Source of the DNA: Nemertoderma westbladi
Taxonomy: Eukaryota > Animalia > Xenacoelomorpha
Direction: 5' to 3'
NCBI GenBank assembly: GCA_032718475.1
Contig: JAUCBJ010006374.1
Span: 1-55,622, forward strand
Length of the DNA: 55,622 nt
This document shows positions 1,170 to 45,831 of the stretch, piece by piece. Position 1 is the stretch's first letter, and each line of letters starts with the position of its first letter. The notes beneath the pieces were generated by a model. The model ran no database searches. It saw nothing but the letters and a program-made list of their open reading frames with translations, and was not told the origin of the DNA. The position numbers and the translations under genes are program-made.

Positions 1170-4100
1170 TCAATCTATTTTCTGACAGGTTTCACCATTC
1201 CCTGCGTAGCCATCAATGCAAGTGCAAAAGAATCCACCATCAGCATCTGTACAATTGGCATTGATATCACAATTATGTGCATCAGCGTTGCATTCGTCCA
1301 CATTTGTACATGTAAATCCATCTCCAGTATATCCCATTATACAAGCACAAACATTTGTTCCAATAAAATTTAAGCAAATTGCGTTATCATCGCATAAACT
1401 ACAAAAATTTATAACATCACAGGTAGTTAATCCGTCTCCATCATATCCATCTTTACACTTACAGTTAAAACTCCCATTAGTATCAGTACAGATTGCATTA
1501 ACATGACAGTTATGGTTATCTTCAACACATTCATTTATGTTAGCACATATTGTACCAGTCATTCTGTAGCCACTGTGACAAGTGCAGATGTAGCTTCCCT
1601 CTGTATCAGCACAATCTGAATTGTCATCACATGAATCTAAATTTTGACTGCATTCATCCACATTGATGCAACTTTCTCCATTTCCACTATATCCCAAATT
1701 GCAAGTACAACTATATCCACCACCAACATCTGTGCAATATGCATTTAAATGGCAATTGTCTGAATTTTCTTCGCATTCATTTGTGTCTGTACAAGTAAAA
1801 CCATCACCAGTAAATCCATTAACACATATACATATATGTGTTCCATGAGAATTTAAACAAACAGCATTTATGTCACATTTATCATAACCCAATAAACACT
1901 CATTTACATCATCACAATTCGTTAAGCCATCTCCATCATATCCATCTTTACACTTGCAGTTAAAACTCCCATTAGTATCAGTACAGATTGCATTAACATG
2001 ACAGTTATGGTTATCTTCATCACATTCATTTATGTTAGCACATATTGTACCAGTCATTCTGTAGCCACTGTGACAAGTGCAGATGTAGCTTCCCTCTGTA
2101 TCAGCACAATCTGAATTGTCATCACATGAATCTAAATTTTGACTGCATTCATCCACATTGATGCAACTTTCTCCATTTCCACTATATCCCAAATTGCAAG
2201 TACAACTATATCCACCACCAACATCTGTGCAATATGCATTTAAATGGCAATTGTCTGAATTTTCTTCGCATTCATTTGTGTCTGTACAAGTAAAACCATC
2301 ACCAGTAAATCCATTAACACATATACATATATGTGTTCCATGAGAATTTAAACAAACAGCATTTATGTCACATTTATCATAACCCAATAAACACTCATTT
2401 ACATCATCACAATTCGTTAAGCCATCTCCATCATATCCATCTTTACAGTTGCAGTTAAAACTTACATTAGTATCAGTACAGATTGCATTAATGTGACAGT
2501 TATGGATATCTTCATCACATTCATTTATGTTAGCACATATTGTACCAGTCATTCTGTAGCCACTGTGACAAGTGCAGATGTAGCTTCCCTCTGTATCAGC
2601 ACAATCTGAATTGTCATCACATGAATCTAAATTTTGACTGCATTCATCCACATTGACGCAACTTTCTCCATTTCCACTATATCCCAAATTGCAAGTACAA
2701 CTATATCCACCACCAACATCTGTGCAATATGCATTTAAATGGCAATTGTCTAAATTTTCTTCGCATTCATTTGTGTCTGTACAAGTAAAACCATCACCAG
2801 TAAATCCATTAACACATATACATATATGTGTTCCATGAGAATTTAAACAAACAGCATTTATGTCACATTTATCATAACCCAATAAACACTCATTTACATC
2901 ATCACAATTCGTTAAGCCATCTCCATCATATCCATCTTTACACTTGCAGTTAAAACTTCCATTAGTATCAGTACAGATTGCATTAACATGACAGTTATGG
3001 TTATCTTCATCACATTCATTTATGTTAGCACATATTGTACCAGTCATTCTGTAGCCACTGTGACAAGTGCAGATGTAGCTTCCCTCTGTATCAGCACAAT
3101 CTGAATTGTCATCACATGAATCTAAATTTTGACTGCATTCATCCACATTGACGCAACTTTCTCCATTTCCACTATATCCCAAATTGCAAGTACAACTATA
3201 TCCACCACCAACATCTGTGCAATATGCATTTAAATGGCAATTGTCTAAATTTTCTTCGCATTCATTTGTGTCTGTACAAGTAAAACCATCACCAGTAAAT
3301 CCATTAACACATATACATATATGTGTTCCATGAGAATTTAAACAAACAGCATTTATGTCACATTTATCATAACCCAATAAACACTCATTTACATCGTCAC
3401 AATTCGTTAAGCCATCTCCATCATATCCATCTTTACAGTTGCAGTTAAAACTTCCATTAGTATCAGTACAGATTGCATTAATGTGACAGTTATGGATATC
3501 TTCATCACATTCATTTATGTTAGCACATGTTGTACCAGTCATTCTGTAGCCACTGTGGCAGGTGCAGATGTAGCTTCCCTCTGTATCAGCACAATCTGAA
3601 TTTTTATCACATGACTCTAAATTTTGACTGCATTCATCCACATTGACGCAACTTTCTCCATTTCCACTATATCCCATGTTGCAAATGCAACTAAATCCAC
3701 CATCAACATTTGTACAGTATGCATTAATATGGCAATTGTCTAAATTTGCTTCGCATTCATTTGTGTCTGTGCAAGTAAAACCATCACCAGTAAATCCATT
3801 AACACATGTACATATATGTGTTCCATAAGAATTTAAACAAACAGCATTTACATCGCATTTATCAGAACCCAATAAACACTCATTTACATCATCACAAGTA
3901 GTTAATCCGTCTCCATCATATCCATCTTTACACTTACAGTTAAAACTTCCCTTAGTATCACTACAGATTGCATTAACATGACAGTTATGGTTATCTTCTT
4001 CACATTCATTTATGTTAGCACATGTAGTACCAGTCATTCTGTAGCCACTGTGACAAGTGCAGATGTAGCTTCCCTCTGTATCAGCACAATCTGAATTGTC

Positions 4101-4995
4101 ATCACATGAATCTAAATATTGACTGCATTCATCCACATTGACGCAACTTTCTCCATTTCCACTATATCCCAAGTTGCAGGTACAACTAAATCCACCACCA
4201 ACCTCTGAACAGTATGCATTAACATGACAATTGTCCAAATTTGATTCACATTCATTTGTGTCTGTGCAGGTAAAACCATCACCACTAAATCCATTTATAC
4301 AGAAACATATGTGTGTTCCATAAGAATTAAAACAAACAGCATTTATATCACATTTATCAGAACCCAATAAACACTCATTTATATCATCACAAGTAGTTAA
4401 TCCATCTCCATCATATCCATCTTTACACTTGCAGTTAAAACTCCCTGTAGTATCACTACAGATTGCATTATCATGACAGTTATGAATATCTTCATCACAT
4501 TCATTTATATTTGCACATATAGTACCAGTCATTCTATATCCATTGTGGCAGGTGCAGATGTAGCTTCCCTCTGAATCAGCACAATCTGAATTTTTATCAC
4601 ATAAATCTAAATTTTGGCTGCATTCATCCACATTGACGCAACTTTCTCCATTTCCACGATATCCCAAGTTGCAAGTGCAACTAAATCCACCATCAACATT
4701 TGTACAGTATGCATTAATATGGCAATTGTCTAAATTTGCTTCGCATTCATTTGTGTCTGTGCAGGTAAAACCATCCCCAGTAAATCCATTAACACATACA
4801 CATATATGCGTTCCATATGAATTATAACAAACAGCATTTAAATCACATTTATCATGACCCAATAAACACTCATTTATGTCATCACAATTCGTTAATCCAT
4901 TTCCATCATATCCATCTTTACAAACACATGAAAAACTTCCAATAGTATCAGTACATATTGCATTAGAGTGGCACATATCTTGGTCACATTCATTG
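1170..4995 (-). repeat. Coding tandem repeat, 495-bp (165-aa) unit of four calcium-binding-type EGF modules, about 7.75 copies (31 EGF)
   Basis: Shadow ORFs recur at 1663, 2158, 2653, 3148, 3643 and 4633 (495-bp phase). Modules carry D/N-x-D/N-E-C and mostly C-x-D/N-x4-F/Y-x-C; one module per tetramer has H at the aromatic position. Confidence 0.95.
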
Positions 4996-7900
4996 GTGTT
5001 AATGCATGGATTTCCAGTATAGCCCTCATTACAGACACAAATGTTGTTGCCATCTATCTCAATACAGGCAGCATTTTGTTCGCAAATAGCTGGATCTGAG
5101 GTACATTCAACTACTTCTTCAGTTATAATACATGATCCTCCGTTTCCAGTGTAGCCCGGATTACAGATACAAATATCATTATTGGCAACTTCAGTACAGG
5201 CAGCATTTTGATCACAAATATTATGATCTGAAGTACAATCAACTGTATCACCAGTTTTAGTACATGTTCCTCCATTTCCTGAGTATCCCTGATTACAGAC
5301 ACAAATATCACTACCACCAACTTCTGTACAGGCAGCATTTTGGTCACAAATATTAGGACTTGAAGTACAATCAACTACTTCTTCAGTTTTAATACATATT
5401 CTTCCATTTCCTGTGTATCCCTGAATACATACACAATTGCCACTACCATCTATAACAATACAGATAGAATTTGGGTCACAAACACTATGATCTGAAGTAC
5501 AATCAACTGTATTATCAGTTTTAGTACATGTTCCTCCATTTCCTGAGTATCCCTGATTACAGACACAAATATCACTACCACCAACTTCAGTACAGGCAGC
5601 ATTTTGGTCACAAATATTAGGATCTGAAGTACAATCAACTACTTCTTCAGTTTTAATACATATTCTTCCATTTCCTGTGTATCCCTGAATACATACACAA
5701 TTGCCACTACCATCTATAACAATACAGATAGAATTTGGGTCACAAACACTATGATCTGAAGTACAATCAACTGTATTATCAGTTTTAGTACATGTTCCTC
5801 CATTTCCTGAGTATCCCTGATTACAGACACAAATATCATTATCACCAATTTCAGTACAGGCAGCATTTTCATCACAAATATTAGGACTTGAAGTACAATC
5901 AACTACTTCTTCAGTTTTAATACATATTCCTCCATTTCCTGTGTATTCCTGAATACATACACAATTGCCACTACCATCTATAACAATACAGATAGCATTT
6001 GGGTCACAAACACTAGGATCTGAAGAACAATCAACTGTATCATCAGTTTTAGTACATGTTCCTCCATTTCCTGTGTATCCCTGATTACAGACACAAATGT
6101 AATTACCACCAACTTCTGTACAGGCAGCATTTTGGTCACAAATATTAGGATCTGAAGTACAATCAACTGTATTTTCAGTACATGTTCTACCATTTCCTGT
6201 ATATCCCTGTTTACAGACACAAATATCACTTCCACCAACTTCCGTACAGGCACCATTTTCATCACAAATATTAGGACTTGAAGAACAATCAACTACTTCT
6301 TCAGTTTTAATACATATTCCCCCATTTCCTGTGTATCCCTGATTACAGACACAAATATCATTGCTACCAACTTCAGTACAGGCAGCATTTTCATCACAAA
6401 TATTCGGATCAGAATTACAATCCACTACTTCTTCCGTTTTAATACATGTTCCTCCGTTTCCTGTGTATCCCTGAATACATACACAAATGCCACTACCATC
6501 TATAACAATACAGATAGCATTTGGGTCACAAACACTAGGATCTGAAGTACAGTCAACTGTATCATCAGTTTTAGTACATGTTCCTCCATTTCCTGAGTAT
6601 CCCTGATTACAGACACAAATATCATTACCACCAACTTCAGTACAGCCAGCATTTTGGTCACAAATATTAGGACTTGAAGTACAATCAACCACTTCTTCAG
6701 TTTTAATACATATTCCTCCATTTCCTGTGTATCCCTGATTACAGACACAAATATCATTACCACCAACTTCAGTACAGCCAGCATTTTGGTCACAAATATT
6801 AGGACTTGAAGTACAATCAACCACATCTTCAGTTTTAATACATATTCCTCCATTTCCTGTGTATCCCTGATTACAGACACAAATATCATTATCACCAACT
6901 TCTGTACAGGCAGCATTTTCATCACAAATATTAGGACTTGAAGTACAATCAACCACTTCTTCAGTTTTAATACATATTCCTCCATTTCCTGTGTATCCCT
7001 GATTACAGACACAAATATCATTATCACCAACTTCAGTACAGGCAGCATTTTCATCACAAATATTAGGACTTGAAGAACAATCAACTACTTCTTCAGTTTT
7101 AATACATATTCTTCCATTTCCTGTGTATCCCTGAATACATACACAATTGCCACTACCATCTATAACAATACAGATAGCATTTGGGTCACAAACACTAGGA
7201 TCTGAAGTACAGTCAACTGTATCATCAGTTTTAGTACATGTTCCTCCATTTCCTGAGTATCCCTGATTACAGACACAAATATCATTATCACCAACTTCAG
7301 TACAGGCAGCATTTTCATCACAAATATTAGGACTTGAAGAACAATCAACTACTTCTTCAGTTTTAATACATATTCCCCCATTTCCTGTGTATCCCTGATT
7401 ACAGACACAAATGTCATTACCACCAACTTCAGTACAGGCAGCATTTTGGTCACAAATATTAGGATCTGAAGTACAATCAACTGTATCACCAGATTTAGTA
7501 CATGTTCCTCCATTTCCTGTGTATCCCTGATTACAGACACAAATATCATTACCACCAACTTCTGTACAGGCAGCATTTTGTTCACAAATATTAGGATCTG
7601 AAGTACAATCAACTACTTCTTCAGTTTTAATACATATTCCCCCATTTCCTGTGTATCCCTGATTACAGACACAAATATCATTATCACCAACTTCTGTACA
7701 GGCAGCATTTTCATCACAAATATTAGGACTTGAAGAACAATCAACTACTTCTTCAGTTTTAATACATATTCCCCCATTTCCTGTGTATCCCTGATTACAG
7801 ACGCAAATATCATTACCACCAACTTCTGTACAGGCAGCATTTTGGTCACAAATATTAGGATCTGAAGTACAATCAACTACTTCTTCAGTTTTAATACATA

Positions 7901-10900
7901 TTCTTCCATTTCCTGTATATCCTTGAATACATACACAATTGCCACTACCATCTATAATAATACAGATAGCATTTGTGTCACAAACACTTGGATCTGAAGT
8001 ACAATCAACTGTATCATCAGTTTTAGTACATGTTCCTCCATTTCCTGAGTATCCCTGATTACAGACACAAATATCATTATCACCAACTTCAGTACAGGCA
8101 GCATTTTGGTCACAAATATTAGGATCTGAAGTACAATCAACTACTTCTTCAGTTTTAATACATATTCTTCCATTTCCTGTATATCCTTGAATACATACAC
8201 AATTGCCACTACCATCTATAATAATACAGATAGCATTTGTGTCACAAACACTTGGATCTGAAGTACAATCAACTGTATCATCAGTTTTAGTACATGTTCC
8301 TCCATTTCCTGAGTATCCCTGATTACAGACACAAATATCATTATCACCAACTTCAGTACAGGCAGCATTTTGGTCACAAATATTAGGACTTGAAGAACAA
8401 TCAACTACTTCTTCAGTTTTAATACATATTCCCCCATTTCCTGTATATCCCTGATTACAGACACAAATATCATTACCACCAACTTCTGTACAGGCAGCAT
8501 TTTGGTCACAAATATTAGGATCTGAAGTACAATCAACTATTTCTTCAGTTTTAATACATATTCTTCCATTTCCTGTGTATCCCTGAATACATACACAATT
8601 GCCACTACCATCTATAACAATACAGATAGCATTTGGGTCACAAACACTAGGATCAGAAGTACAGTCAACTGTATCATCAGTTTTAGTACATGTTCCTCCA
8701 TTTCCTGTATATCCCTGATTACAGACACAAATATCATTACCACCAATTTCTGTACAGGCAGCATTTTGGTCACAAATATTAGGATCTGAAGTACAATCAA
8801 CTGTATCATCAGTTTTAGTACATGTTCCTCCATTTCCTGAGTATCCCTGATTACAGACACAAATATCATTATCACCAACTTCTGTACAGGCAGCATTTTG
8901 GTCACAAATATTCGGATCAGAAGTACAATCAACTGTATCATCAGTTTTAGTACATGTTCCTCCATTTCCTGAGTATCCCTGATTACAGACACAAATATCA
9001 TTACCACCAATTTCTGTACAGGCAGCATTTTGGTCACAAATATTAGGATCTGAAGTACAATCAACTGTATCATCAGTTTTAGTACATGTTCCTCCATTTC
9101 CTGAGTATCCCTGATTACAGACACAAATATCATTACCACCAACTTCTGTACAGGCAGCATTTTGGTCACAAATATTAGGACTTGAAGTACAATCAACTAC
9201 TTCTTCAGTTTTAATACATATTCTTCCATTTCCTATGTATCCCTGAATACATACACAATTGCTACTACCATCTATAACAATACAGATAGCATTTGGGTCA
9301 CAAACACTAGGATGAGAAGTACAGTCAACTGTATCATCAGTTTTAGTACATGTTCCTCCATTTCCTGTATATGCCTGATTACAGACACAAATATCATTAT
9401 CACCAACTTCAGTACAGGCAGCATTTTCATCACAAATATTAGGACTTGAAGAACAATCAACTACTTCTTCAGTTTTAATACATATTCCCCCATTTCCTGT
9501 ATATCCCTGATTACAGACACAAATATCATTACCACCAACTTCTGTACAGGCAGCATTTTCATCACAAATATTAGGATCTGAAGTACAATCAACTATTTCT
9601 TCAGTTTTAATACATATTCTTCCATTTCCTGTGTATCCCTGAATACATACACAGTTGCCACTACCCTCTATAATAATACAGATAGCATTTGGGTCACAAA
9701 CACTTGGATCTGAAGTACAATCAACTGTATCATCAGTTTTAGTACATGTTCCTCCATTTCCTGTATATCCCTGATTACAGACACAAATATCATTACCACC
9801 AATTTCTGTACAGGCAGCATTTTGGTCACAAATATTAGGATCTGAAGTACAATCAACTGTATCATCAGTTTTAGTACATGTTCCTCCATTTCCTGTATAT
9901 CCCTGATTACAGACACAAATATCATTACCACCAACTTCTGTACAGGCAGCATTTTCATCACAAATATTAGGACTTGAAGTACATTCAACTACTTCTTCAG
10001 TTTTAATACATATTCCCCCATTTCCTGTATATCCCTGATTACAGACACAAATATCATTACCACCAACTTCAGTACAGGCAGCATTTTCATCACAAATATT
10101 AGGACTTGAAGTACATTCAACTACTTCTTCAGTTTTAATACATATTCCCCCATTTCCTGTATATCCCTGATTACAGACACAAATATCATTACCACCAACT
10201 TCAGTACAGGCAGCATTTTCATCACAAATATTAGGACTTGAAGAACAATCAACTACTTTTTCAGTTTTAATACATATTCCCCCATTTCCTGAGTATCCCT
10301 GATTACAGACACAAATATCATTATCACCAACTTCAGTACAGGCAGCATTTCCATCACAAATATTAGGACTTGAAGTACAATCAACTACTTCTTCGGTTTT
10401 AATACATATTCTTCCATTTCCTGTGTATCCCTGAATACATACACAATTGCCACTACCATCTATAACAATACAGATAGCATTTGGGTCACAAACACTTAGA
10501 TCTGAAGTACAATCAACTGTATCATCAGTTTTAGTACATGTTCCTCCATTTCCTGTATATCCCTGATTACAGACACAAATATCATTACGACCAATTTCTG
10601 TACAGGCAGCATTTTGGTCACAAATATTAGGATCTGAAGTACAATCAACTGTATCATCAGTTTTAGTACATGTTCCTCCATTTCCTGTATATCCCTGATT
10701 ACAGACACAAATATCATTATCACCAACTTCAGTACAGGCAGCATTTTCATCACAAATATTATGACTTGAAGAACAATCAACTACTTCTTCAGTTTTAATA
10801 CATATTCCCCCATTTCCTGTGTATCCCTGATTACAGACACAAATATCATTACCACCAACTTCAGTACAGGCAGCATTTTGGTCACAAATATTAGGATCTG

Positions 10901-13900
10901 AAGTACAATCAACTACTTCTTCAGTTTTAATACATATTCTTCCATTTCCTGTGTATCCCTGAATACATACACAATTGCCACTACCATCTATAACAATACA
11001 GATAGCATTTGGGTCACAAACACTAGGTTCTGAAGTACAGTCAACTGTATCATCAGTTTTAGTACATGTTCCCCCATTTCCTGTATATCCCTGATTACAG
11101 ACACAAATGTAATTAACACCAACTTCAGTACAGGCAGCATTTTGGTCACAAATATTAGGACTTGAAGTACAATCAACTACTTCTTCAGTGTTAATACATA
11201 TTCCTCCATTTCCTGTGTATCCCTGATTACAGACACAAATATCATTACGACCAATTTCTGTACAGGCAGCATTTTGGTCACAAATATTAGGATCTGAAGT
11301 ACAATCAACTGTATCATCAGTTTTAGTACATGTTCCTCCATTTCCTGTATATCCCTGATTACAGACACAAATATCATTATCACCAACTTCAGTACAGGCA
11401 GCATTTTCATCACAAATATTAGGACTTGAAGAACAATCAATTACTTCTTCAGTTTTAATACATATTCCCCCATTTCCTGTGTATCCCTGATTACAGACAC
11501 AAATATCATTACCACCAACTTCAGTACAGGCAGCATTTTCATCACAAATATTAGGACTTGAAGAACAATCAACTACTTCTTCAGTTTTAATACATATTCC
11601 CCCATTTCCTGTGTATCCCTGATTACAGACACAAATATCATTACCACCAACTTCTGTACAGGCAGCATTTTGGTCACAAATATTAGGATCTGAAGTACAA
11701 TCAACTACTTCTTCAGTTTTAATACATATTCTTCCATTTCCTGTGTATCCCTGAATACATACACAATTGCCACTACCATCTATAACAATACAGATAGCAT
11801 TTGGGTCACAAACACTAGGATCTGAAGTACAATCAACTGTATCATCAGTTTTAGTACATGTTCCTCCATTTCCTGAGTATCCCTGATTACAGACACAAAT
11901 ATCATTATCACCAACTTCAGTACAGGCAGCATTTTCATCACAAATATTAGGACTTGAAGTACAATCAACTACTTCTTCAGTTTTAATACATATTCTTCCA
12001 TTTCCTGTGTATCCCTGAATACATACACAGTTGCCACTACCATCTATAACAATACAGATAGCATTTGGGTCACAAACACTAGGATCTGAAGTACAATCAA
12101 CTGTATCATCAGTTTTAGTACATGTTCTTCCATTTCCTGAGTATCCCTGATTACAGACACAAATATCATTATCACCAACTTCAGTACAGGCAGCATTTTG
12201 GTCACAAATATTAGGATCTGAAGTACAATCAACTACTTCTTCAGTTTTAATACATATTCTTCCATTTCCTGTATATCCTTGAATACATACACAGTTGCCA
12301 CTACCATCTATAATAATACAGATAGCATTTGTGTCACAAACACTTGGAACTGAAGTACAATCAACTGTATTATCAGTTTTAGTACATGTTCCTCCATTTC
12401 CTGTATATCCCTGATTACAGACACAAATATCACTACCACCAACTTTTGTACAGGCAGCATTTTGGTCACAAATATTAGGATCTGAAGTACAATCAACTAC
12501 TTCTTCAGTTTTAATACATATTCTTCCATTTCCTGTGTATCCCTGAATACAGACACAAATATCATTACCACCAACTTCAGTACAGGCAGCATTTTCATCA
12601 CAAATATTAGGATCTGAAGTACAATCAACTACTTCTTCAGTTTTAATACATATTCTTCCATTTCCTGTGTATCCCTGAATACAGACACAAATATCACTAC
12701 CACCAACTTCTGTACAGGCAGCATTTTGGTCACAAATATTAGGATCTGAAGTACAATCAACTACTTCTTCAGTTTTAATACATATTCCCCCATTTCCTGT
12801 GTATCCCTGATTACAGACACAAATGTAATTACCACCAACTTCAGTACAGGCAGCATTTTCATCACAAATATTAGGATCTGAAGTACAATCAACTACTTCT
12901 TCAGTTTTAATACATATTCTTCCATTTCCTGTATATCCTTGAATACATACACAGTTGCCACTACCATCTATAATAATACATATAGCATTTGTGTCACAAA
13001 CACTTGGAACTGAAGTACAATCAACTGTATTATCAGTTTTAGTACATGTTCCTCCATTTCCTGTATATCCCTGATTACAGACACAAATATCACTACCACC
13101 AACTTCTGTACAGGCAGCATTTTGGTCACAAATATTAGGATCTGAAGTACAATCAACTACTTCTTCAGTTTTAATACATATTCTTCCATTTCCTGTGTAT
13201 CCCTGAATACAGACACATATATCATTACCACCAACTTCAGTACAGGCAGCATTTTCATCACAAATATTAGGACTTGAAGAACAATCAACTACTTCTTCAG
13301 TTTTAATACATATTCCCCCATTTCCTGTGTATCCCTGATTACAGACACAAATATCATTACCACCAACTTCTGTACAGGCAGCATTTTGGTCACAAATATT
13401 AGGATCTGAAGTACAATCAACTGTATTATCAGTTTTAGTACATGTTCCTCCATTTCCTGTATATCCATTATTACAGACACAAATATCACTACCACCAACT
13501 TCTGTACAGGCAGCATTTTGGTCACAAATATTAGGATCTGAAGTACAATCAACTACTTCTTCAGTTTTAATACATATTCTTCCATTTCCTGTGTATCCCT
13601 GAATACAGACACAAATATCATTATCACCAACATCAGTACAGGCAGCATTTTCATCACAAACATTAGGACTTGAAGAACAATCAACTACTTCTTCAGTTTT
13701 AATACATATTCCCCCATTTCCTGTGTATCCCTGATTACAGACACAAATATAATTACCACCAACTTCTGTACAGGCAGCATTTTGGTCACAAATATTAGGA
13801 TCTGAAGTACAATCAACTACTTCTTCAGTTTTAATACATATTCCCCCATTTCCTGTATATCCCTGATTACAGACACAAATATCATTATCACCAACATCAG

Positions 13901-25900: not shown

Positions 25901-28900
25901 TACAGGCAGCATTTTCATCACAAATATTCGGATCAGAATTACAATCCACTACTTCTTCCGTTTTAATACATGTTCCTCCGTTTCCAGTGTATCCCTGATT
26001 ACAGACACAAATATCACTACCACCAACTTCAGTACAGGCAGCATTTTGATAACAACTATTAGGATCTGAATTACAATCAACTATATCTTCAGATTTAATA
26101 CATGTACCTCCATTTCCAGTGTATCCCTCATTGCAGACACAAATATTACTACCACCAACTTCAGTACAGGCAGCATTTTCATCACAAATATTCGGATCAG
26201 AATTACAATCCACTACTTCTTCTGTTTTAATACATGTACCTCCATTTCCAGTGTATCCCTGATTACAGACACAAATATCACTACCACCAACTTCAGTACA
26301 GGCAGCATTTTCATCACAAATATTCAGATCAGAATTACAATCCACTACTTCTTCTGTTTTAATACATGTTCCTCCATTTCCAGTGTATCCCTGATTACAG
26401 ACACAAATATCACTACCACCAACTTCAGTACAGGCAGCATTTTCATCACAAATATTCGGATCAGAATTACAATCCACTACTTCTTCCGTTTTAATACATG
26501 TTCCTCCGTTTCCAGTGTATCCCACATTACAGACACAAATATCACTACCACCAACTTCAGTACAGGCAGCATTTTGATCACAACTATTAGAATCTGAATT
26601 ACAATCAAATATATCTTCAGATTTAATACATGTACCTCCATTTCCAGTGTATCCCTGATTACAGACACAAATATCACTACCACCAACTTCAGTACAGGCA
26701 GCATTTTCATCACAAATATTCGGATCAGAATTACAATCCACTACTTCTTCCGTTTTAATACATGTTCCTCCGTTTCCAGTGTATCCCTGATTACAGACAC
26801 AAATATCACTACCACCAACTACAGTACAGGCAGCATTTTCATCACAAATATTCGGATCAGAATTACAATCCACTACTTCTTCCGTTTTAATACATGTTCC
26901 TCCATTTCCAGTGTATCCCTCATTACAGACACAAATATCACTACCACCAACCTCAGTACAGGCAGCATTTTCATCACAAATATTCGGATCAGAATTACAA
27001 TCCACTACTTCTTCCGTTTTAATACATGTTCCTCCGTTTCCAGTGTATCCCTGATTACAGACACAAATATCACTACCACCAACTTCAGTACAGGCAGCAT
27101 TTTCATCACAAATATTCGGATCAGAATTACAATCCACTACTTCTTCCGTTTTAATACATGTTCCTCCGTAACCAGTGTATCCCTCATTACAGACACAAAT
27201 ATCACTACCACCAACTTCAGTACAGGCAGCATTTTCATCACAAATATTCGGATCAGAATTACAATCCACTACTTCTTCCGTTTTAATACATGTTCCTCCG
27301 TTTCCAGTGTATCCCTCATTACAGAAACAAATATCACTACCACCAACTTCAGTACAGGCAGCATTTTCATCACAAATATTCGGATCAGAATTACAATCCA
27401 CTACTTCTTCCGTTTTAATACATGTTCCTCCGTTTCCAGTGTATCCCTCATTACAGACACAAATATCACTACCACCAACTTCAGTACAGGCAGCATTTTC
27501 ATCACAAATATTCGGATCAGAATTACAATCCACTACTTCTTCTGTTTTAATACATGTACCTCCATTTCCAGTGTATCCCTGATTACAGACACAAATATCA
27601 CTACCACCAACTTCAGTACAGGCAGCATTTTCATCACAAATATTCGGATCAGAATTACAATCCACTACTTCTTCCGTTTTAATACATGTTCCTCCGTTTC
27701 CAGTGTATCCCTCATTGCAGACACAAATATTACTACCACCAACTTCAGTACAGGCAGCATTTTCATCACAAATATTCGGATCAGAATTACAATCCACTAC
27801 TTCTTCTGTTTTAATACATGTACCTCCATTTCCAGTGTATCCCTCATTACAGACACAAATATCACTACCACCAACTTCAGTACAGGCAGCATTTTCATCA
27901 CAAATATTCGGATCAGAATTACAATCCACTACTTCTTCCGTTTTAATACATGTTCCTCCGTTTCCAGTGTATCCCTCATTACAGACACAAATATCACTAC
28001 CACCAACTTCAGTACAGGCAGCATTTTCATCACAAATATTCGGATCAGAATTACAATCCACTACTTCTTCCGTTTTAATACATGTTCCTCCGTTTCCAGT
28101 GTATCCCTCATTACAGAAACAAATATCACTACCACCAACTTCAGTACAGGCAGCATTTTCATCACAAATATTCGGATCAGAATTACAATCCACTACTTCT
28201 TCCGTTTTAATACATGTTCCTCCGTTTCCAGTGTATCCCTCATTACAGACACAAATATCACTACCACCAACTTCAGTACAGGCAGCATTTTCATCACAAA
28301 TATTCGGATCAGAATTACAATCCACTACTTCTTCCGTTTTGATACATGTTCCTCCGTTTCCAGTGTATCCCTCATTACAGAAACAAATATCACTACCACC
28401 AACTTCAGTACAGGCAGCATTTTCATCACAAATATTCGGATCAGAATTACAATCCACTACTTCTTCCGTTTTAATACATGTTCCTCCGTTTCCAGTGTAT
28501 CCCTGATTACAGACACAAATATCATTTTCACCAACATCAGTACAGGCAGCATTTTCATCACAAATATTAGGATCAGAATTACAATCCACTACTTCTTCCG
28601 TTTTAACACATCTTCCTCCCTTTCCAGTGTATCCCTCATTACAGACACAAATATTACTACCACCAACTTCAGTACAGGCAGCATTTTCATCACAAATATT
28701 AGGATCTGAAGTACAATCAACTGTATAACCAGTTTTAGTACATGTTCCACCATTTCCTGAGAATCCCTGATTACAGACACAAATATCACTACCACCAACT
28801 TCAGTACAGGCAGCATTTTCATCACAAATATTCGGATCAGAATTACAATCCACTACTTCTTCCGTTTTAATACATGTTCCTCCGTTTCCAGTGTATCCCT

Positions 28901-31900
28901 GATTACAGACACAAACATCATTTTCACCAACATCAGTACATGCAGCATTTTGATCACAAATATTAGGATCTGAACTACAATCAACTACTTCTTCCGTTTT
29001 AATACATATTCCTCCATTTCCTGTATAACCCTGATTACAGACACAAATATCACTACCACCAATTTCAGTACAGGCAGCATTTTGATCACAACTATTAGGA
29101 TCTGAATTACAATCAACTACTTCTTCAGATTTAATACATATTCCTCCATTTCCTGTGTAACCCTGATTACAGACACAAATATCATTGCTACCAACTTCAG
29201 TACAGGCAGAATTTTGATCACAAATATTAGGATCTGAACTACAATCAACTGTATCACCAGTTTTAGTACATGTTCCTCCATTTCCTGAGTATCCCTGATT
29301 ACAGACACAAATATCATTACCTCCAACTTCTGTACAGGCAGCATTTTGGTCACAAATATTAGGATCTGAAGTACAATCAACTACTTCTTCCGTTTTAATA
29401 CATATTCCTCCATTTCCTGTATAACCCTGATTACAGACACAAATATCACTACCACCAACTTCAGTACAGGCAGCATTTTGATCACAACTATTAGGATCTG
29501 AATTACAATCAACTATATCTTCAGATTTAATACATGTACCTCCATTTCCTGTGTATCCCTGATTACAGACACAAATATCACTACCACCAACTTCAGTACA
29601 GGCAGCATTTTGATCACAACTATTAGGATCTGAATTACAATCAACTATATCTTCAGATTTAATACATGTACCTCCATTTCCTGTGTATCCCTGATTACAG
29701 ACACAAATATCACTACCACCAACTTCAGTACAGGCAGCATTTTGATCACAACTATTAGGATCTGAATTACAATCAACTATATCTTCAGTTTTAATACATG
29801 TACCTCCATTTCCTGTGTATCCCTGATTACAGACACAAATATCATTACCACCAACTTCTGTACAGGCAGCATTTTGGTCACAAATATTAGGATCTGAAGT
29901 ACAATCAACTACTTCTTCCGTTTTAATACATATTCCTCCATTTCCTGTATAACCCTGATTACAGACACAAATATCACTACCACCAACTTCAGTACAGGCA
30001 GCATTTTGATCACAACTATTAGGATCTGAATTACAATCAACTATATCTTCAGATTTAATACATGTACCTCCATTTCCTGTGTATCCCTGATTACAGACAC
30101 AAATATCACTACCACCAACTTCAGTACAGGCAGCATTTTCATCACAAATATTCGGATCAGAATTACAATCCACTACTTCTTCCGTTTTAATACATGTACC
30201 TCCATTTCCTGTGTATCCCTGATTACAGACACAAATATCATTACCACCAACTTCTGTACAGGCAGCATTTTGGTCACAAATATTAGGATCTGAAGTACAA
30301 TCAACTACTTCTTCCGTTTTAATACATATTCCTCCATTTCCTGTATAACCCTGATTACAGACACAAATATCACTACCACCAACTTCAGTACAGGCAGCAT
30401 TTTGGTCACAAATATTAGGATCTGAAGTACAATCAACTACCTCTTCCGTTTTAATACATATTCCTCCATTTCCTGTATAACCCTGATTACAGACACAAAT
30501 ATCACTACCACCAACTTCAGTACAGGCAGCATTTTGATCACAACTATTAGGATCTGAATTACAATCAACTATATCTTCAGATTTAATACATGTACCTCCA
30601 TTTCCTGTGTATCCCTGATTACAGACACAAATATCACTACCACCAACTTCAGTACAGGCAGCATTTTCATCACAAATATTCGGATCAGAATTACAATCCA
30701 CTACTTCTTCCGTTTTAATACATGTTCCTCCGTTTCCAGTGTATCCCTGATTACAGACACAAATATCACTACCACCAACTTCAGTACAGGCAGCATTTTC
30801 ATCACAAATATTCGGATCAGAATTACAATCCACTACTTCTTCCGTTTTAATACATGTTCCTCCATTTCCAGTGTATCCCTCATTACAGACACAAATATCA
30901 CTACCACCAACTTCAGTACAGGCAGCATTTTCATCACAAATATTCGGATCAGAATTACAATCCACTACTTCTTCCGTTTTAATACATTTTCCTCCGTTTC
31001 CAGTGTATCCCTGATTACAGACACAAATATCACTACCACCAACTTCAGTACAGGCAGCATTTTCATCACAAATATTCGGATCAGAATTACAATCCACTAC
31101 TTCTTCCGTTTTAATACATGTTCCTCCGTTTCCAGTATATCCCTGATTACAGACACAAATATCATTTTCACCAACATCAGTACAGGCAGCATTTTCATCA
31201 CAAATATTAGGACTTGAAGTACAATCAACTACTTCTTCAGATTTAATACATATTCCACCATTTCCTGTGTAACCCTGATTACAGACACAAATATCATTGC
31301 TACCAACTTCAGTACAGGCAGCATTTTCATCACAAATATTAGGATCTGAACTACAATCAACTGTATCACCAGTTTTAGTACATGTTCCTCCATTTCCTGA
31401 GAATCCCTGATTACAGACACAAATATCACTACCACCAACTTCAGTACAGGCAGCATTTTCATCACAAATATTCGGATCAGAATTACAATCCACTACTTCT
31501 TCCGTTTTAAAACATGTTCCTCCGTTTCCAGTGTATCCCTCATTACAGACACAAATATCACTACCACCAACTTCAGTACAGGCAGCATGTTCATCACAAA
31601 TATTCGGATCAGAATTACAATCCACTACTTCTTCCGTTTTAATACATGTTCCTCCGTTTCCAGTGTATCCCTCATTACAGACACAAATATCACTACCACC
31701 AACTTCAGTACAGGCAGCATTTTCATCACAAATATTCGGATCAGAATTACAATCCACTACTTCTTCCGTTTTAATACATGTTCCTCCGTTTCCAGTGTAT
31801 CCCTGATTACAGATACAAATATCACTACCACCAACTTCAGTACAGGCGGCATTTTCATCACAAATATTCGGATCAGAATTACAATCCACTACTTCTTCCG

Positions 31901-34900
31901 TTTTAATACATGTTCCTCCGTTTCCAGTGTATCCCTGATTACAGACACAAATATCACTACCACCAACTTCAGTACAGGCAGCATTTTCATCACAAATATT
32001 CGGATCAGAATTACAATCCACTACTTCTTCCGTTTTAATACATGTTCCTCCGTTTCCAGTGTATCCCTGATTACAGACACAAATATCACTACCACCAACT
32101 TCAGTACAGGCAGCATTTTCATCACAAATATTCGGATCAGAATTACAATCCACTACTTCTTCCGTTTTAATACATGTTCCTCCATTTCCAGTGTATCCCT
32201 CATTACAGACACAAATATCACCACCACCAACTTCAGTACAGGCAGCATTTTCATCACAAATATTCGGATCAGAATTACAATCCACTACTTCTTCAGTTTT
32301 AATACATGTTCCTCCGTTTCCAGTGTATCCCTGATTACAGACACAAATATCACTACCACCAACTTCAGTACAGGCAGCATTTTCATCACAAATATTCGGA
32401 TCAGAATTACAATCCACTACTTCTTCCGTTTTAATACATGTTCCTCCGTTTCCAGTGTATCCCTCATTACAGACACAAATATCACTACCACCAACTTCAG
32501 TACAGGCAGCATTTTCATCACAAATATTCGGATCAGAATTACAATCCACTACTTCTTCCGTTTTAATACATGTTCCTCCGTTTCCAGTGTATCCCTGATT
32601 ACAGACACAAATATCACTACCAACAACTTCAGTACAGGCAGCATTTTCATCACAAATATTCGGATCAGAATTACAATCCACTACTTCTTCCGTTTTAATA
32701 CATGTTCCTCCATTTCCAGTGTATCCCTCATTACAGACACAAATATCACCACCACCAACTTCAGTACAGGCAGCATTTTCATCACAAATATTCGGATCAG
32801 AATTACAATCCACTACTTCTTCCGTTTTAATACATGTTCCTCCGTTTCCAGTGTATCCCTGATTACAGACACAAATATCACTACCACCAACTTCAGTACA
32901 GCCAGCATTTTCATCACAAATATTCGGATCAGAATTACAATCCACTACTTCTTCCGTTTTAATACATGTTCCTCCGTTTCCAGTGTATCCCTGATTACAG
33001 ACACAAATATCACTACCACCAACTTCAGTACAGCCAGCATTTTCATCACAAATATTCGGATCAGAATTACAATCCACTACTTCTTCCGTTTTAATACATG
33101 TTCCTCCATTTCCAGTGTATCCCTCATTACAGACACAAATATCACTACCACCAACTTCAGTACAGGCAGCATTTTCATCACAAATATTCGGATCAGAATT
33201 ACAATCCACTACTTCTTCCGTTTTAATACATGTTCCTCCGTTTCCAGTGTATCCCTGATTACAGACACAAATATCACTACCACCAACTTCAGTACAGCCA
33301 GCATTTTCATCACAAATATTCGGATCAGAATTACAATCCACTACTTCTTCCGTTTTAATACATGTTCCTCCATTTCCAGTGTATCCCTCATTACAGACAC
33401 AAATATCACTACCACCAACTTCAGTACAGGCAGCATTTTCATCACAAATATTCGGATCAGAATTACAATCCACTACTTCTTCCGTTTTAATACATGTTCC
33501 TCCGTTTCCAGTGTATCCCTGATTACAGACACAAATATCACTACCACCAACTTCAGTACAGCCAGCATTTTCATCACAAATATTCGGATCAGAATTACAA
33601 TCCACTACTTCTTCCGTTTTAATACATGTTCCTCCGTTTCCAGTGTATCCCTGATTACAGACACAAATATCACTACCACCAACTTCAGTACAGCCAGCAT
33701 TTTCATCACAAATATTCGGATCAGAATTACAATCCACTACTTCTTCCGTTTTAATACATGTTCCTCCATTTCCAGTGTATCCCTCATTACAGACACAAAT
33801 ATCACTACCACCAACTTCAGTACAGCCAGCATTTTCATCACAAATATTCGGATCAGAATTACAATCCACTACTTCTTCCGTTTTAATACATGTTCCTCCG
33901 TTTCCAGTGTATCCCTGATTACAGACACAAATATCACTACCACCAACTTCAGTACAGCCAGCATTTTCATCACAAATATTCGGATCAGAATTACAATCCA
34001 CTACTTCTTCCGTTTTAATACATGTTCCTCCATTTCCAGTGTATCCCTCATTACAGACACAAATATCACTACCACCAACTTCAGTACAGGCAGCATTTTC
34101 ATCACAAATATCCGGATCAGAATTACAATCCACTACTTCTTCCGTTTTAATACATGTTCCTCCGTTTCCAGTGTATCCCTGATTACAGACACAAATATCA
34201 CTACCACCAACTTCAGTACAGCCAGCATTTTCATCACAAATATTCGGATCAGAATTACAATCCACTACTTCTTCCGTTTTAATACATGTTCCTCCATTTC
34301 CAGTGTATCCCTCATTACAGACACAAATATCACTACCACCAACTTCAGTACAGGCAGCATTTTCATCACAAATATTCGGATCAGAATTACAATCCACTAC
34401 TTCTTCCGTTTTAATACATGTTCCTCCGTTTCCAGTGTATCCCTGATTACAGACACAAATATCACTACCACCAACATCAGTACAGGCAGCATTTTCATCA
34501 CAAATATTAGGACTTGAAGTACAATCAACTACTTCTTCAGATTTAATACATATTCCTCCATTTCCTGTGTAACCCAGATTACAGACACAAATATCATTGC
34601 TACCAACTTCAGTACAGGCAGCATTTTCATCACAAATATTAGGATCTGAACTACAATCAACTGTATCACCAGTTTTAGTACATGTTCCTCCATTTCCTGA
34701 GAATCCCTGATTACAGACACAAATATCACTACCACCAACTTCAGTACAGGCAGCATTTTCATCACAAATATTCGGATCAGAATTACAATCCACTACTTCT
34801 TCCGTTTTAATACATGTTCCTCCGTTTCCAGTGTATCCCTCATTACAGACACAAATATCACTACCACCAACTTCAGTACAGTCAGCATTTTGATCACAAA

Positions 34901-37900
34901 TATTAGAATTTGATGTACAATCAACTATATCTTCAGTTTTAATACATGTACCTCCATTTCCTGTGTATCCCTGATTACAGACACAAATATCACTACCACC
35001 AACTTCAGTACAGTCAGCATTTTGATCACAAATATTAGAATTTGATGTACAATCAACTATATCTTCAGTTTTAATACATGTTCCTCCATTTCCAGTGTAT
35101 CCCTCATTACAGACACAAATATCACTACCACCAACTTCAGTACAAACAGCATTTTCATCACAAATATTCGGATCAGAATTACAATCCACTACTTCTTCCA
35201 TTTTATTACATGTTCTTCCGTTTCCAGTGTATCCCTGATTACAGACACAAATATCACTACCACCAACTTCAGTACAGGCAGCATTTTGATCACAAATATT
35301 CGGATCAGAATTACAATCCACTACTTCTTCCGTTTTAATACATGTTCCTCCGTTTCCAGTGTATCCCTGATTACAGACACAAATATCACTACCACCAACT
35401 TCAGTACAGTCAGCACTTTGATCACAAATATTAGAATTTGATGTACAATCAACTATATCTTCAGTTTTAATACATGTACCTCCATTTCCTGTGTATCCCT
35501 GATTACAGACACAAATATCACTACCACCAACTTCAGTACAGTCAGCATTTTGATCACAAATATTAGAATTTGATGTACAATCAACTATATCTTCAGTTTT
35601 AATACATGTTCCTCCATTTCCAGTGTATCCCTCATTACAGACACAAATATCACTACCACCAACTTCAGTACAAACAGCATTTTCATCACAAATATTCGGA
35701 TCAGAATTACAATCCACTACTTCTTCCATTTTATTACATGTTCCTCCGTTTCCAGTGTATCCCTGATTACAGACACAAATATCATTTTCACCAACATCAG
35801 TACATGCAGCATTTTGATCACAAATATTAGGATCTGAACTACAGTCAACTGTATCACCAGTTTTAGTACATGTTCCTCCATTTCCTGAGTATCCCTGATT
35901 ACAGACACAAATATCATTATCGCCAACTTCAGTACAGGCAGCATTTTCATCACAAATATTCGGATCAGAATTACAATCCACTACTTCTTCCGTTTTAATA
36001 CATGTTCCTCCGTTTCCAGTGTATCCCTCATTACAGACACAAATATCACTACCACCAACTTCAGTACAGTCAGCATTTTGATCACAAATATTAGAATTTG
36101 ATGTACAATCAACTATATCTTCAGTTTTAATACATGTACCTCCATTTCCTGTGTATCCCTGATTACAGACACAAATATCACTACCACCAACTTCAGTACA
36201 GTCAGCATTTTGATCACAAATATTAGAATTTGATGTACAATCAACTATATCTTCAGTTTTAATACATGTTCCTCCATTTCCAGTGTATCCCTCATTACAG
36301 ACACAAATATCACTACCACCAACTTCAGTACAAACAGCATTTTCATCACAAATATTCGGATCAGAATTACAATCCACTACTTCTTCCGTTTTAATACATG
36401 TTCCTCCGTTTCCAGTGTATCCCTCATTACAGACACAAATATCACTACCACCAACTTCAGTACAGGCAGCATTTTCATCACAAATATTCGGATCAGAATT
36501 ACAATCCACTACTTCTTCCGTTTTAATACATGTTCCTCCGTTTCCAGTGTATCCCTCATTACAGACACAAATATCACTACCACCAACTTCAGTACAGGCA
36601 GCATTTTCATCACAAATATTCGGATCAGAATTACAATCCACTACTTCTTCCGTTTTAATACATGCTCCTCCGTTTCCAGTGTATCCCTGATTACAGACAC
36701 AAATATCACTACCACCAACTTCAGTACAGGCAGCATTTTGATCACAAATATTAGGATCTGAATTACAATCAACTATATCTTCAGATTTAATACATGTACC
36801 TCCATTTCCTGTGTATCCCCGATTACAGACACAAATATCACTACCACCAACTTCAGTACAGTCAGCATTTTGATCACAAATATTAGAATTTGAAGTACAA
36901 TCAACTATATCTTCAGTTTTAATACATGTACCTCCATTTCCTGTGTATCCCTGATTACAGACACAAATATCACTACCACCAACTTCAGTACAGTCAGCAT
37001 TTTGATCACAAATATTAGAATTTGAAGTACAATCAACTATATCTTCAGTTTTAATACATGTACCTCCATTTCCTGTGTATCCCTGATTACAGACACAAAT
37101 ATCACTACCACCAACTTCAGTACAGGCAGCATTTTGATCACAAATATTAGGATCTGAATTACAATCAACTATATCTTCAGATTTAATACATGTACCTCCA
37201 TTTCCTGTGTATCCCTGATTACAGACACAAATATCACTACCACCAACTTCAGTACAGTCAGCATTTTGATCACAAATATTAGAATTTGAAGTACAATCAA
37301 CTATATCTTCAGTTTTAATACATGTACCTCCATTTCCTGTGTATCCCTGATTACAGACACAAATATCACTACCACCAACTTCAGTACAGTCAGCATTTTG
37401 ATCACAAATATTAGAATTTGAAGTACAATCAACTATATCTTCAGTTTTAATACATGTACCTCCATTTCCTGTGTATCCCTGATTACAGACACAAATATCA
37501 CTACCACCAACTTCAGTACAGGCAGCATTTTGATCACAAATATTAGGATCTGAATTACAATCAACTATATCTTCAGATTTAATACATGTACCTCCATTTC
37601 CTGTGTATCCCTGATTACAGACACAAATATCACTACCACCAACTTCAGTACAGTCAGCATTTTGATCACAAATATTAGAATTTGATGTACAATCAACTAT
37701 ATCTTCAGTTTTAATACATGTACCTCCATTTCCTGTGTATCCCTGATTACAGACACAAATATCACTACCACCAACTTCAGTACAGTCAGCATTTTGATCA
37801 CAAATATTAGAATTTGAAGTACAATCAACTATATCTTCAGTTTTAATACATGTACCTCCATTTCCTGTGTATCCCTGATTACAGACACAAATATCACTAC

Positions 37901-39819
37901 CACCAACTTCAGTACAGTCAGCATTTTGATCACAAATATTAGAATTTGATGCACAATCAACTATATCTTCAGTTTTAATACATGTACCTCCATTTCCTGT
38001 GTATCCCTGATTACAGACACAAATATCACTACCACCAACTTCAGTACAGTCAGCATTTTGATCACAAATATTAGAATTTGATGTACAATCAACTATATCT
38101 TCAGTTTTAATACATGTACCTCCATTTCCTGTGTATCCCTGATTACAGACACAAATATCACTACCACCAACTTCAGTACAGGCAGCATTTTCATTACAAA
38201 TATTCGGATCAGAATTACAATCCACTACTTCTTCTGTTTTAATACATGTTCCTCCGTTTCCAGTGTATCCCTGATTACAGACACAAATATCACTACCACC
38301 AACTTCAATACAGGCAGCATTTTCATCACAAATATTCGGATCAGAATTACAATCCACTACTTCTTCTGTTTTAATACATGTTCCTCCGTTTCCAGTGTAT
38401 CCCTTATTACAGACACAAATATCACTACCACCAACTTCAGTACAGGCAGCATTCTGATCACAAATATTAGGATCTGAAGTACAATCAACTATATTTTCAG
38501 TTTTAATACATGTACCTCCATTTCCTGTGTATCCCTGATTACAGACACAAATATCATTACCACCAACTTCAGTACAGGCTGCATTTTGGTCACAAATATT
38601 CAGATCAGAATTACAATCCACTACTTCTTCCGTTTTAATACATGTTCCTCCGTTTCCAGTGTAGCCCTCATTACAGACACAAATATCATTGCTACCAACT
38701 TCAGTACAGTCAGCATTTTGATCACAAATATTAGAATTTGAAGTACAATCAACTATATCTTCAGTTTTAATACATGTACCTCCATTTCCTATGTATCCCT
38801 GATTACAGACACAAATATCACTACCACCAACTTCAGTACAGGCAGCATTTTCATCACAAATATTCGGATCAGAATTACAATCCACTACTTCTTCTGTTTT
38901 AATACATGTTCTTCCGTTTCCAGTGTATCCCTGATTACAGACACAAATATCACTACCACCAACTTCAATACAGGCAGCATTTTGGCCACAAATATTAGGA
39001 TCAGAATTACAATCCACTACTTCTTCCGTTTTAATACATGTTCCTCCGTTTCCAGTGTATCCCTGATTACAGACACAAATATCACTACCACCAACTTCAA
39101 TACAGGCAGCATTTTCATCACAAATATTCGGATCAGAATTACAATCCACTACTTCTTCCGTTTTAATACATGTTCCTCCGTTTCCAGTGTATCCCTGATT
39201 ACAGACACAAATATCACTACCACCAACTTCAGTACAGGCAGCATTTTCATCACAAATATTCGGATCAGAATTACAATCCACTACTTCTTCCGTTTTAATA
39301 CATGTTCCTCCGTTTCCAGTGTATCCCTGATTACAGACACAAATATCACTACCACCAACTTCAATACAGGCAGCATTTTCATCACAAATATTCGGATCAG
39401 AATTACAATCCACTACTTCTTCTGTTTTAATACATGTTCTTCCGTTTCCAGTGTATCCCTGATTACAGACACAAATATCACTACCACCAACTTCAGTACA
39501 GGCAGCATTCTGATCACAAATATTAGGATCTGAAGTACAATCAACTATATCTTCAGTTTTAATACATGTACCTCCATTTCCTGTGTATCCCTGATTACAG
39601 ACACAAATATCATTACCACCAACTTCAGTACAGGCTGCATTTTGGTCACAAACAATTGGATCTGCCTTACACTCCAATGTTTCTGCATCTTTCATTATAA
39701 TAAACATTTTTGAAAATTCTTCAACTTGGATAATTGAACGAGATGACAGAGGTTCGGTGACCACAACTATGTTTCCAATGAATATATGAAAGTGGTAAAC
39801 TCTTTTTCCAATGTAGTTA
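1170..39819 (-). CDS. Exon 6 (terminal, 38,650 bp) of a giant secreted hemopexin-like/multi-EGF protein: end of the hemopexin-like head, 263 non-Ca-binding EGF modules, 31 cbEGF-type modules, stop
   Basis: Uninterrupted 12,889-codon ORF of six-Cys EGF modules. The ORF-track start is TTG in intron sequence; the likely entry is the acceptor ctttgcag|T-AAC-TAC at 39819, matching the phase-2 donor of exon 5. Ends ...ETCQKID-TGA at 1170. Confidence 0.93.
4990..39680 (-). repeat. Coding tandem repeat, 132-bp (44-aa) EGF unit, 263 copies; consensus EEVVDCNSDPNICDENAACTEVGGSDICVCNQGYTGNGGTCIKT
   Basis: First-Cys codons of the first (39669) and last (5103) units are 34,566 bp apart. Adding back three in-frame 6-bp deletions gives exactly 262 x 132. 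Confidence 0.95.
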
Positions 39820-40132
39820 CTGCAAAGTACGGTAATCAAAAATATAATACTTTTTACACAACTTATAAAATAATACTAACTATAATAAAATAACAATATA
39901 TACAAATCATGAAAATAGACTCGTGTCAATAAGAATACATCCAACTTTCGTAAGCTAACATATTGTTTTTCAACAAAAAATCGTATTTTCATGAATCTCT
40001 ATTTACATACTTGCCCAACCGATACGAATGCAATTTCAAAACAGAAACAATTTTCAAACTCTAATAATAAATTGGAATACAAAGCTTATAAGCCTTCTAT
40101 GTAACGTCTATGACAGTGAGGTGCAATATTAC

Positions 40133-40250
40133 CTGATTACAGCATTCCATGGCGCAGAAGTAATAGCAGTTATTTGTGGAAATGCCACATCTATTGGTAC
40201 TTTGTATATCAGCCGCGAAGTTTCCAGATCATAAACATAAGCATGAATAT
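40133..40250 (-). CDS. Exon 5 (118 bp), hemopexin-like blades 3-4: (D)IHAYVYDLETSRLIYKVPIDVAFPQITAITSAPWNAVI(S)
   Basis: Strong polypyrimidine acceptor ttttttcttcttcag|AT and donor AG|gtaata. Phase 1 in and phase 2 out, compatible with both neighbours; open frame. Confidence 0.85.
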
Positions 40251-41987: not shown

Positions 41988-42147
41988 CTGATGCCAGTAT
42001 AACATGACGAGATCCTCCATTATGGAAATAGGCAATCGAAGTTACACCATCTGGAATTGGCCCCCCTATAACATGTGAGTAATATCCAATCATATCAACG
42101 ACAAATTTACCATCGACAAATTTCATCCGCACATATTTACCTACAAT
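41988..42147 (-). CDS. Exon 4 (160 bp), hemopexin-like blades 2-3: IVGKYVRMKFVDGKFVVDMIGYYSHVIGGPIPDGVTSIAYFHNGGSRHVILAS
   Basis: Acceptor ttatttattacag|ATT and donor TCAG|gtatag. Phase 0 in and phase 1 out, joining exons 3 and 5 in frame. Confidence 0.82.
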
Positions 42148-45679: not shown

Positions 45680-45831
45680 TCCAACAATCAATAGTCGGTC
45701 CGCCAAATAGTCATAATAGCCGTCCAACACCTGGAAACCTTCATCCATCAACGGAAACTCATCAATGATTTTCTTCGGATATGACGGCAAGGTTGCACCA
45801 GTTTCTATATTCACTTTCCATGCGTAAAGTC
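45680..45831 (-). CDS. Exon 3 (152 bp), hemopexin-like blades 1-2: (G)LYAWKVNIETGATLPSYPKKIIDEFPLMDEGFQVLDGYYDYLADRLLIVG
   Basis: Acceptor cacccgcag|GA and donor GGA|gtgagt. G-x-Y-x-W...SYPKKIIDEFP resembles the hemopexin-repeat motif G..YW...GYPK.I...FP. Confidence 0.88.

Follow-up and report, generated by a model that had tools for sequence, protein, structure and literature searches.

A predicted 38.65-kb terminal exon encoding 294 EGF modules in the xenacoelomorph Nemertoderma westbladi

The stretch of DNA described here (the window) comprises 55,622 nucleotides of the Nemertoderma westbladi assembly GCA_032718475.1 (contig JAUCBJ010006374.1, positions 1 to 55,622). Its minus strand carries a long tandem array of EGF modules in a single open frame. 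This array is real and under selection. We consider it probable that it lies in one terminal exon which is translated whole, and that it would form the rod of a structural protein predicted to be secreted. The predicted product contains at least 13,025 residues (approximately 1.3 MDa) and may act as a secreted structural tether or filament. Coordinates of the features are collected in Table 1.

The minus strand contains one stop-to-stop frame of 12,901 codons, running from 39875 to 1170, with its lone stop at the end and within a window free of N. The remaining two frames of this strand contain 308 and 2,598 stops over the same DNA, and the open frame is therefore not due to base composition. 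The window has a GC content of 35%, which, together with its predicted spliceosomal introns, a LINE and the remnant of a DDE transposase, would suit the genome of an invertebrate animal. The first 19 codons of the frame lie upstream of a CAG acceptor that ends at 39820, and the coding stretch is therefore 39819-1170, or 38,650 bp. This stretch codes for 12,882 complete codons and a chain of approximately 1.32 MDa. No intervening sequence interrupts it, as all cysteines of the exon are accounted for by 293 regularly spaced modules and one shortened module. The unbroken 38,650-bp coding stretch reported in a preliminary description of this DNA is confirmed at its exact length by the frame, the acceptor and the module spacing. 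The same description spoke of a single intronless exon, which agrees with the prediction from DNA for the stretch but not for the gene, since three predicted upstream exons join it in frame. When the four exons are connected by their coordinates they give 13,025 codons with one stop, and their phases chain into the phase-2 acceptor. The giant exon is therefore likely to be the last exon of a multi-exon spliced gene. The proposed mRNA length of about 39.5 kb holds as a lower bound, since the coding part that starts at 45831 amounts to 39,078 nt and an AATAAA at 823 lies about 350 nt past the stop.

The chain contains 294 modules, of which 263 form the array and 31, mostly of the calcium-binding type, precede the stop. 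Each of the 293 modules that follow the spacing pattern contains six cysteines, and the six leftover cysteines of the exon belong to the shortened module. A typical array module is 44 residues long; the distances between modules are 44 residues in 259 cases, 42 in nine, 41 in 21, and 40, 39 and 79 in one case each. Three stretches scanned against Pfam matched EGF_3 with 84.5 (at the start of the array), 206 and 247 bits, compared to a curated cut-off of 28.5, and the 3' end matched EGF_CA with 147 bits. A single-sequence structure model of 269 residues matched the EGF arrays of NELL2 and Notch in the PDB; with a mean pLDDT of 54 this model is of low confidence, and it served solely as confirmation of the EGF fold. 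Calcium-binding EGF modules are marked by D/N-E/Q before the first cysteine and by the motif C-x-D/N-x4-F/Y-x-C. Neither motif is present in any of the 263 array modules. In each of the 30 matched modules at the 3' end the acidic motif precedes the first cysteine, and 22 of them also contain the hydroxylation motif. The modules of this 3' part are of at least seven different EGF types, and no intron separates them. The exon-coded chain is strongly acidic (2,160 D+E versus 361 K+R) and contains six N-glycosylation sequons. It ends four residues after the last EGF module, with no transmembrane segment and no ZP domain between this module and the stop.

Selection removes cysteine changes along the whole array, while other replacements accumulate about neutrally. 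Among 49 bases that are private to one unit we found 39 non-cysteine replacements and 10 silent changes, compared to 30.7 and 9.7 expected. None of the 49 causes the loss or gain of a cysteine or a stop, where 8.6 such events would be expected from the observed spectrum; approximately six should have struck a cysteine, and none did. Because the frame was picked for being open, stops were left out of the probability calculation, which gave P = 9e-4 for the private variants and P = 4e-5 for 81 variants present in up to three units. Similarly, 93 alleles occupy first or second codon positions, and all of them lie outside the 12 cysteine columns of 88. Length variants in the array are limited to three 6-nt deletions, with no frameshift and no stop. 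The 40 units with a private base are distributed as 9, 12, 7 and 12 over the four quarters of the array. The occurrence of private mutations in all quarters, with none at a cysteine, points to translation of the whole array. The array can be read as a natural mutation-accumulation record in which cysteines are absolutely conserved and other replacements drift, a pattern which suggests that surface sequence counts for less than fold and length.

Divergence between units increases with their distance, from 8.8% at two units to 14.5% at 200 (Spearman 0.31, a value as high being reached in none of 200 permutations), and for 165 of the 259 full-length units the closest relative lies within 10 units. 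Subfamilies occupy zones, short higher-order periods occur in the 3' half, and the units at the edges are the most diverged. Divergence that rises with distance, together with zoned subfamilies, is the signature of local unequal exchange. The proposal that the array grew by intra-exonic unequal recombination is supported by the rank correlation, by the proximity of closest relatives and by length changes that keep the frame. In the 495-bp repeat, the last copies have diverged by 0.6-4% and the first copies by 8-10%. The presence of at least seven intron-free EGF types in the 3' part suggests that the founder exon was intronless before the recent expansion.

The three upstream exons would encode most of a cysteine-free head. 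This head, of approximately 190 residues, resembles hemopexin blades by eye, and a hemopexin-blade motif has one match in the six frames of the window, at 45820 in exon 45680-45831. A candidate exon at 52331-52408 shows a weak likeness to the head, with a score reached by 82 of 2,000 shuffles; when this exon is added, the score for an internal repeat in the head is reached by 27 of 300 shuffles. A hemopexin-like propeller is a lead from the sequence and is not established. Another candidate exon at 48825-48703 was rejected because it overlaps with an 87-nt, 99% inverted repeat. Upstream of 45900 there are 29 candidates for a phase-1 donor, none of which yields a convincing first exon.

Several points weigh against a secreted rod translated whole from one terminal exon. 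The exon structure is a prediction from DNA alone. A start codon and a signal peptide were not found within the window, although they may lie outside, and with no signal peptide in the window secretion is predicted solely from the disulfide-type modules. Without the candidate exon, the score for an internal repeat in the head was reached by 255 of 300 shuffles and is not significant. Pfam returned no matches for the three upstream exons, single exons of which split the putative blades, and searches of the PDB, the Atlas and protein databases with single exons returned no relatives of the head; five matches from the protein search turned out to be unrelated repetitive proteins. No ortholog of the giant protein emerged either from two protein searches that covered proteins of less than approximately 2,000 amino acids. 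The best local identity was 48-49% to generic EGF arrays among the best 120 of 550 matches, and 45% in the second search (best 120 of 250). The units of the array share ancestry, and allele counts other than those of private bases are not fully independent events. Finally, the exon contains in-frame phase-1 donor-like and acceptor-like sites.

These sites make in-frame splicing within the exon (exitron splicing), or an exit at 1462 or 3937, possible on paper. Only four GT[AG]AG sites are present in the exon: 39670 (phase 1), 3937 (phase 1), 2465 (phase 0) and 1462 (phase 1). Phase-1 acceptor-like sites are found in about 100 units, with 63 + 10 + 2 + 2 copies of one type and 17 + 9 of another. 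From the phase-1 GTAAG at 39670 and acceptor-like sites repeated through the array one could construct a gene with a real, coding array from which many transcripts lose large in-frame parts, such that 38.65 kb would be the longest form, and the EGF exons of Drosophila dumpy are described as extensively alternatively spliced (PMC2930355). We regard this scenario as unlikely: four GT[AG]AG sites in 38.65 kb are few, none lies in the 132-bp array past its first bases, splicing from 39670 into the commonest of the phase-1 acceptors would, as read from the sequence, cost a module its first cysteine, and cysteines are conserved in all four quarters. It is less likely still that the gene continues from a donor at 1462 or 3937 into downstream exons, coding for example for a membrane anchor, which would turn the giant exon into an internal one and shorten it by 0.3-2.8 kb in all or part of the transcripts. 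Both sites are full-consensus GTAAGT donors in phase 1, and the protein otherwise stops four residues past the last EGF module without an oligomerising or anchoring domain. However, the two sites are formed by Cys-Lys-Cys codons of the repeat, two intact and divergent six-cysteine modules follow in frame between 1462 and the stop, and an AATAAA is present at 823.

Two further alternatives concern the array itself. An assembler may have over-expanded it or merged two haplotypes, in which case the true exon would be much shorter. An accurate long read is typically shorter than the 34.7-kb array, and the copy number given here is that of the assembly. Yet an over-expanding assembler leaves long identical segments, and the units are mostly distinct, with 198 of 259 full-length units unique in DNA and 157 in protein, and with pairwise differences of 12% on average and up to 30%. 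Segments of kilobase length that are identical or almost so, as false duplication would leave, are absent: no exact repeat in the array exceeds 469 bp, and the best self-matches over 1, 2 and 5 kb contain 4, 20 and 202 mismatches. The private variants also avoid cysteine codons, unlike sequencing errors. Over-expansion is therefore very improbable, although the exact copy number probably varies between alleles. Public DNA runs are in line with the assembly at the 5' border of the exon. Runs X1 and X2 each cover 39670-40821 in one contig with zero differences, and run X3 covers 39670-40735 in one contig with four substitutions and an 8-base gap, the one exonic change being Lys to Arg, so that single DNA contigs span the acceptor boundary in all three. 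Of 388 sampled words from 700-5600, X1, X2 and X3 contain fractions of 0.71, 0.59 and 0.51. These runs represent two studies, one of which is possibly the source of the window, and X2 and X3 derive from one sample. A further run, X4, contains 0.35 of the sampled 700-5600 words, yet only 9 of 30 bins of 39670-42620, all of them multi-copy; a 3' bias in an RNA library, low coverage by DNA reads or divergence of the individual could each produce this pattern. No RNA run was listed among those that contain the sampled words, which has no bearing on expression. Contigs of the DNA runs contain no spliced joints at the predicted introns, as expected of DNA. The second alternative is that the array is a satellite recently amplified from an EGF gene, no longer translated and open merely since its copies are young. 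Non-cysteine replacements do accrue at an approximately neutral rate (39 versus 30.7 expected). This idea can nonetheless be all but set aside, as units that differ to the extent given above contain no stop, frameshift or cysteine change, while neighbouring non-coding satellites of the window do contain indels.

A single translated terminal exon thus remains our favoured reading, and its size can be compared with known cases. The preliminary description measured the exon against human genes, and the sizes it gave are borne out by one paper: exon 3 of MUC16 exceeds 21,000 nt and a TTN exon exceeds 17,000 nt (PMC3467050). The degree of surprise drawn from this comparison was too high, because the proper benchmark is exon 4 of the Balbiani ring genes, with about 35 kb (PMC2654125, PMC3028071). 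As described in the cited accounts, Chironomus BR1 and BR2 contain three introns in the first 3 kb, followed by the 35-kb exon 4, are constitutively spliced and encode secretory proteins (PMC2654125, PMC3028071, PMC4192438). In these descriptions BR1, BR2.1, BR2.2 and BR6 share with the gene predicted here a length of approximately 40 kb, three short 5' exons, one tandem-repeat coding exon and a secretory structural product. In contrast to Balbiani ring exon 4, which is internal and followed by a short last exon, the giant exon described here is predicted to be terminal since its frame stops at 1170, although the donor-like sites at 1462 and 3937 leave some doubt. It also consists of canonical six-cysteine EGF domains over 38.65 kb, and the likeness to the Balbiani ring genes is one of architecture only, not homology. 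The exon is about 10% longer than this best-documented precedent and is an extreme case of a known gene type, in which folded EGF domains take the place of low-complexity repeats.

Other giant coding sequences are built from other repeats. The cited sources report 42,270 bp of coding sequence, divided between two exons of similar size, for spider AgSp1 (PMC6553539), 14,794 amino acids for flatworm Mlig-ap2 (PMC8621496) and 17 exons for PKZILLA-1 (10.1101/2024.01.29.577497). Like the gene at hand, AgSp1, Mlig-ap2, MUC16 and TTN are very long repeat-built coding sequences, but the repeats described for them are not EGF arrays, and the documented exons of AgSp1, MUC16 and TTN measure approximately 21-22 kb or less, compared to 38.65 kb here. 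Among the papers listed by literature searches outside subscription journals, none describes this gene or a coding exon of greater length. A stronger formulation would make this the longest animal coding exon on record (38.65 kb, leaving PKZILLA-1 exon sizes out of the comparison), constitutive and coding for one chain that exceeds 1.3 MDa and has 294 EGFs, 882 disulfides and a propeller head, the founding member of a lineage-specific family of near-micrometre extracellular tethers in which the number of repeats within the exon sets the length. We offer this version tentatively and give it somewhat less than an even chance.

With regard to EGF proteins, the earlier comparison with fibrillin fits the last 31 modules only and fails for the 263 modules without calcium motifs. 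Fibrillin and LTBP genes encode one EGF module per exon. The present gene shares with them the calcium-binding consensus in the last 31 modules, and its best database matches are named fibrillin-like, but here 294 modules follow each other with no intervening sequence. Eight-cysteine TB or hybrid domains are absent from the exon, all cysteines of which lie in six-cysteine modules, and the Pfam scan returned no TB family. Drosophila Dumpy, as described in PMC2930355, is likewise a giant protein of the extracellular space with a very large number of EGF modules, and each of the eleven visible missense alleles of dumpy alters a cysteine. Dumpy differs by its 78 coding exons, its DPY modules and its ZP domain with a membrane anchor, none of which is found in the giant exon. 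Long tandem EGF arrays also recur in the secreted cohesive materials of marine holdfasts, with mussel mfp2, scallop sbp9 (49 tandem EGF-like repeats), octovafibrin and sea star sfp3/4 as examples from one review (PMC12817120). The chain described here contains six times more modules than sbp9, and the homology seen extends no further than the EGF module. Overall, the gene works like a combination of a Balbiani-ring-type giant exon and an EGF-rod matrix protein; it is neither a fibrillin nor a Dumpy.

How might such a gene arise and function? We propose a founder exon that contained several different EGF modules and was already without introns. Repeated local unequal crossing-over and conversion would then have amplified this founder in steps of 132 bp, or of 495 bp at the 3' end. 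In a terminal exon the spliceosome would need to define one acceptor only, so that exon definition would set no limit to its length. Terminal exons are indeed described as exempt from the size limit of internal exons (PMC3467050). In the encoded protein, the cysteine-free head of at least 190 residues, possibly but not demonstrably a hemopexin-like propeller, would bind a partner, the 263 acidic non-calcium EGFs would provide a long spacer, and the 31 calcium-type EGFs would form a stiffer tail. An EGF module is 2.5-3 nm long, from which a spacer of 0.7-0.9 micrometre can be estimated for the extended state. This layout would resemble that of marine invertebrate holdfast and matrix proteins built from EGF arrays.

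Provided that transcripts retain the exon in full, it is slightly longer than the classic 35-kb exon of the Balbiani ring genes, the longest coding exon in the literature consulted, and folded disulfide-rich domains, beyond mucin- or silk-like repeats, would be amplifiable 260-fold within one exon. Such genes have probably been overlooked by short-read assemblies and annotation. This one may serve as a test case for the definition of terminal exons, the suppression of cryptic splice sites and the secretion of megadalton chains.

Table 1. Predicted features of the EGF gene in the window.
Feature	Position	Strand	Remarks
Candidate further upstream exon	52408/52405-52331	-	consensus CAG/GTAAGT phase-1 donor; lead only
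Predicted upstream exon, 152 bp	45680..45831	-	phase 1 to 0, AG/GT; requires further phase-1 exon upstream
Predicted upstream exon, 160 bp	41988..42147	-	phase 0 to 1, AG/GT
Predicted upstream exon, 118 bp	40133..40250	-	phase 1 to 2, AG/GT
Splice acceptor, pyrimidine tract + CAG, phase 2	39820..39839	-	fits phase-2 donor of exon 40250-40133
Predicted terminal coding exon	1170..39819	-	38,650 bp including stop TGA at 1172-1170
Unique cysteine-free 49-residue exon start, end of head domain	39672..39819	-	
Internal donor-like site GTAAG, phase 1, start of array	39666..39670	-	
132-bp tandem array, 263 EGF modules (Pfam EGF_3)	5004..39671	-	regional subfamilies, short higher-order periods
495-bp higher-order repeat, 7.2 copies of four different calcium-binding-type EGF modules	1419..4988	-	
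Two unique terminal EGF modules (one shortened), four residues, TGA	1170..1418	-	
Candidate polyadenylation signal AATAAA	818..823	-	about 350 nt past stop; A/T-rich region, may be chance

The intron predicted at 45679-42148 contains a GC-rich 41-bp minisatellite with 36 copies (42635-44110). Within introns, the segments 40760-40860, 41450-41650 and 42244-42540 show contig depths thousands-fold above their flanks in X1-X3, as high-copy short interspersed elements. Upstream of the exon that begins at 45831, an unusually long and clean (ACTG)n microsatellite extends over 1.9 kb (46468-48362), with 474 copies that are 99% perfect. A foldback-like element (48351-49210) has 87-nt inverted arms at 48427-48513 and 48789-48875 that are 99% complementary. 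The arms are flanked by 21-bp tandem repeats in opposite orientation, and the centre of the element contains an apparently clean GT-AG intron of 86 nt, on the minus strand. Further upstream we found a fragment of a LINE-type reverse transcriptase (49881-50693, plus strand, 270 aa, Pfam RVT_1 with E 3e-32) and, by eye, a broken Tc1/mariner-like transposase remnant (51270-51960, minus strand) with a weak DDE_3 match (E 0.068). At the opposite end of the window, an 88-codon frame on the plus strand (2-268) is open from the window edge to a TAG and converges with the EGF gene. This frame has no Pfam or PDB match; in an Atlas feature search it scored 0.97 against short phage-capsid-like clusters, 41-84% of whose members carry PF19821, but recognition stayed under the threshold, and we treat the match as a lead only.

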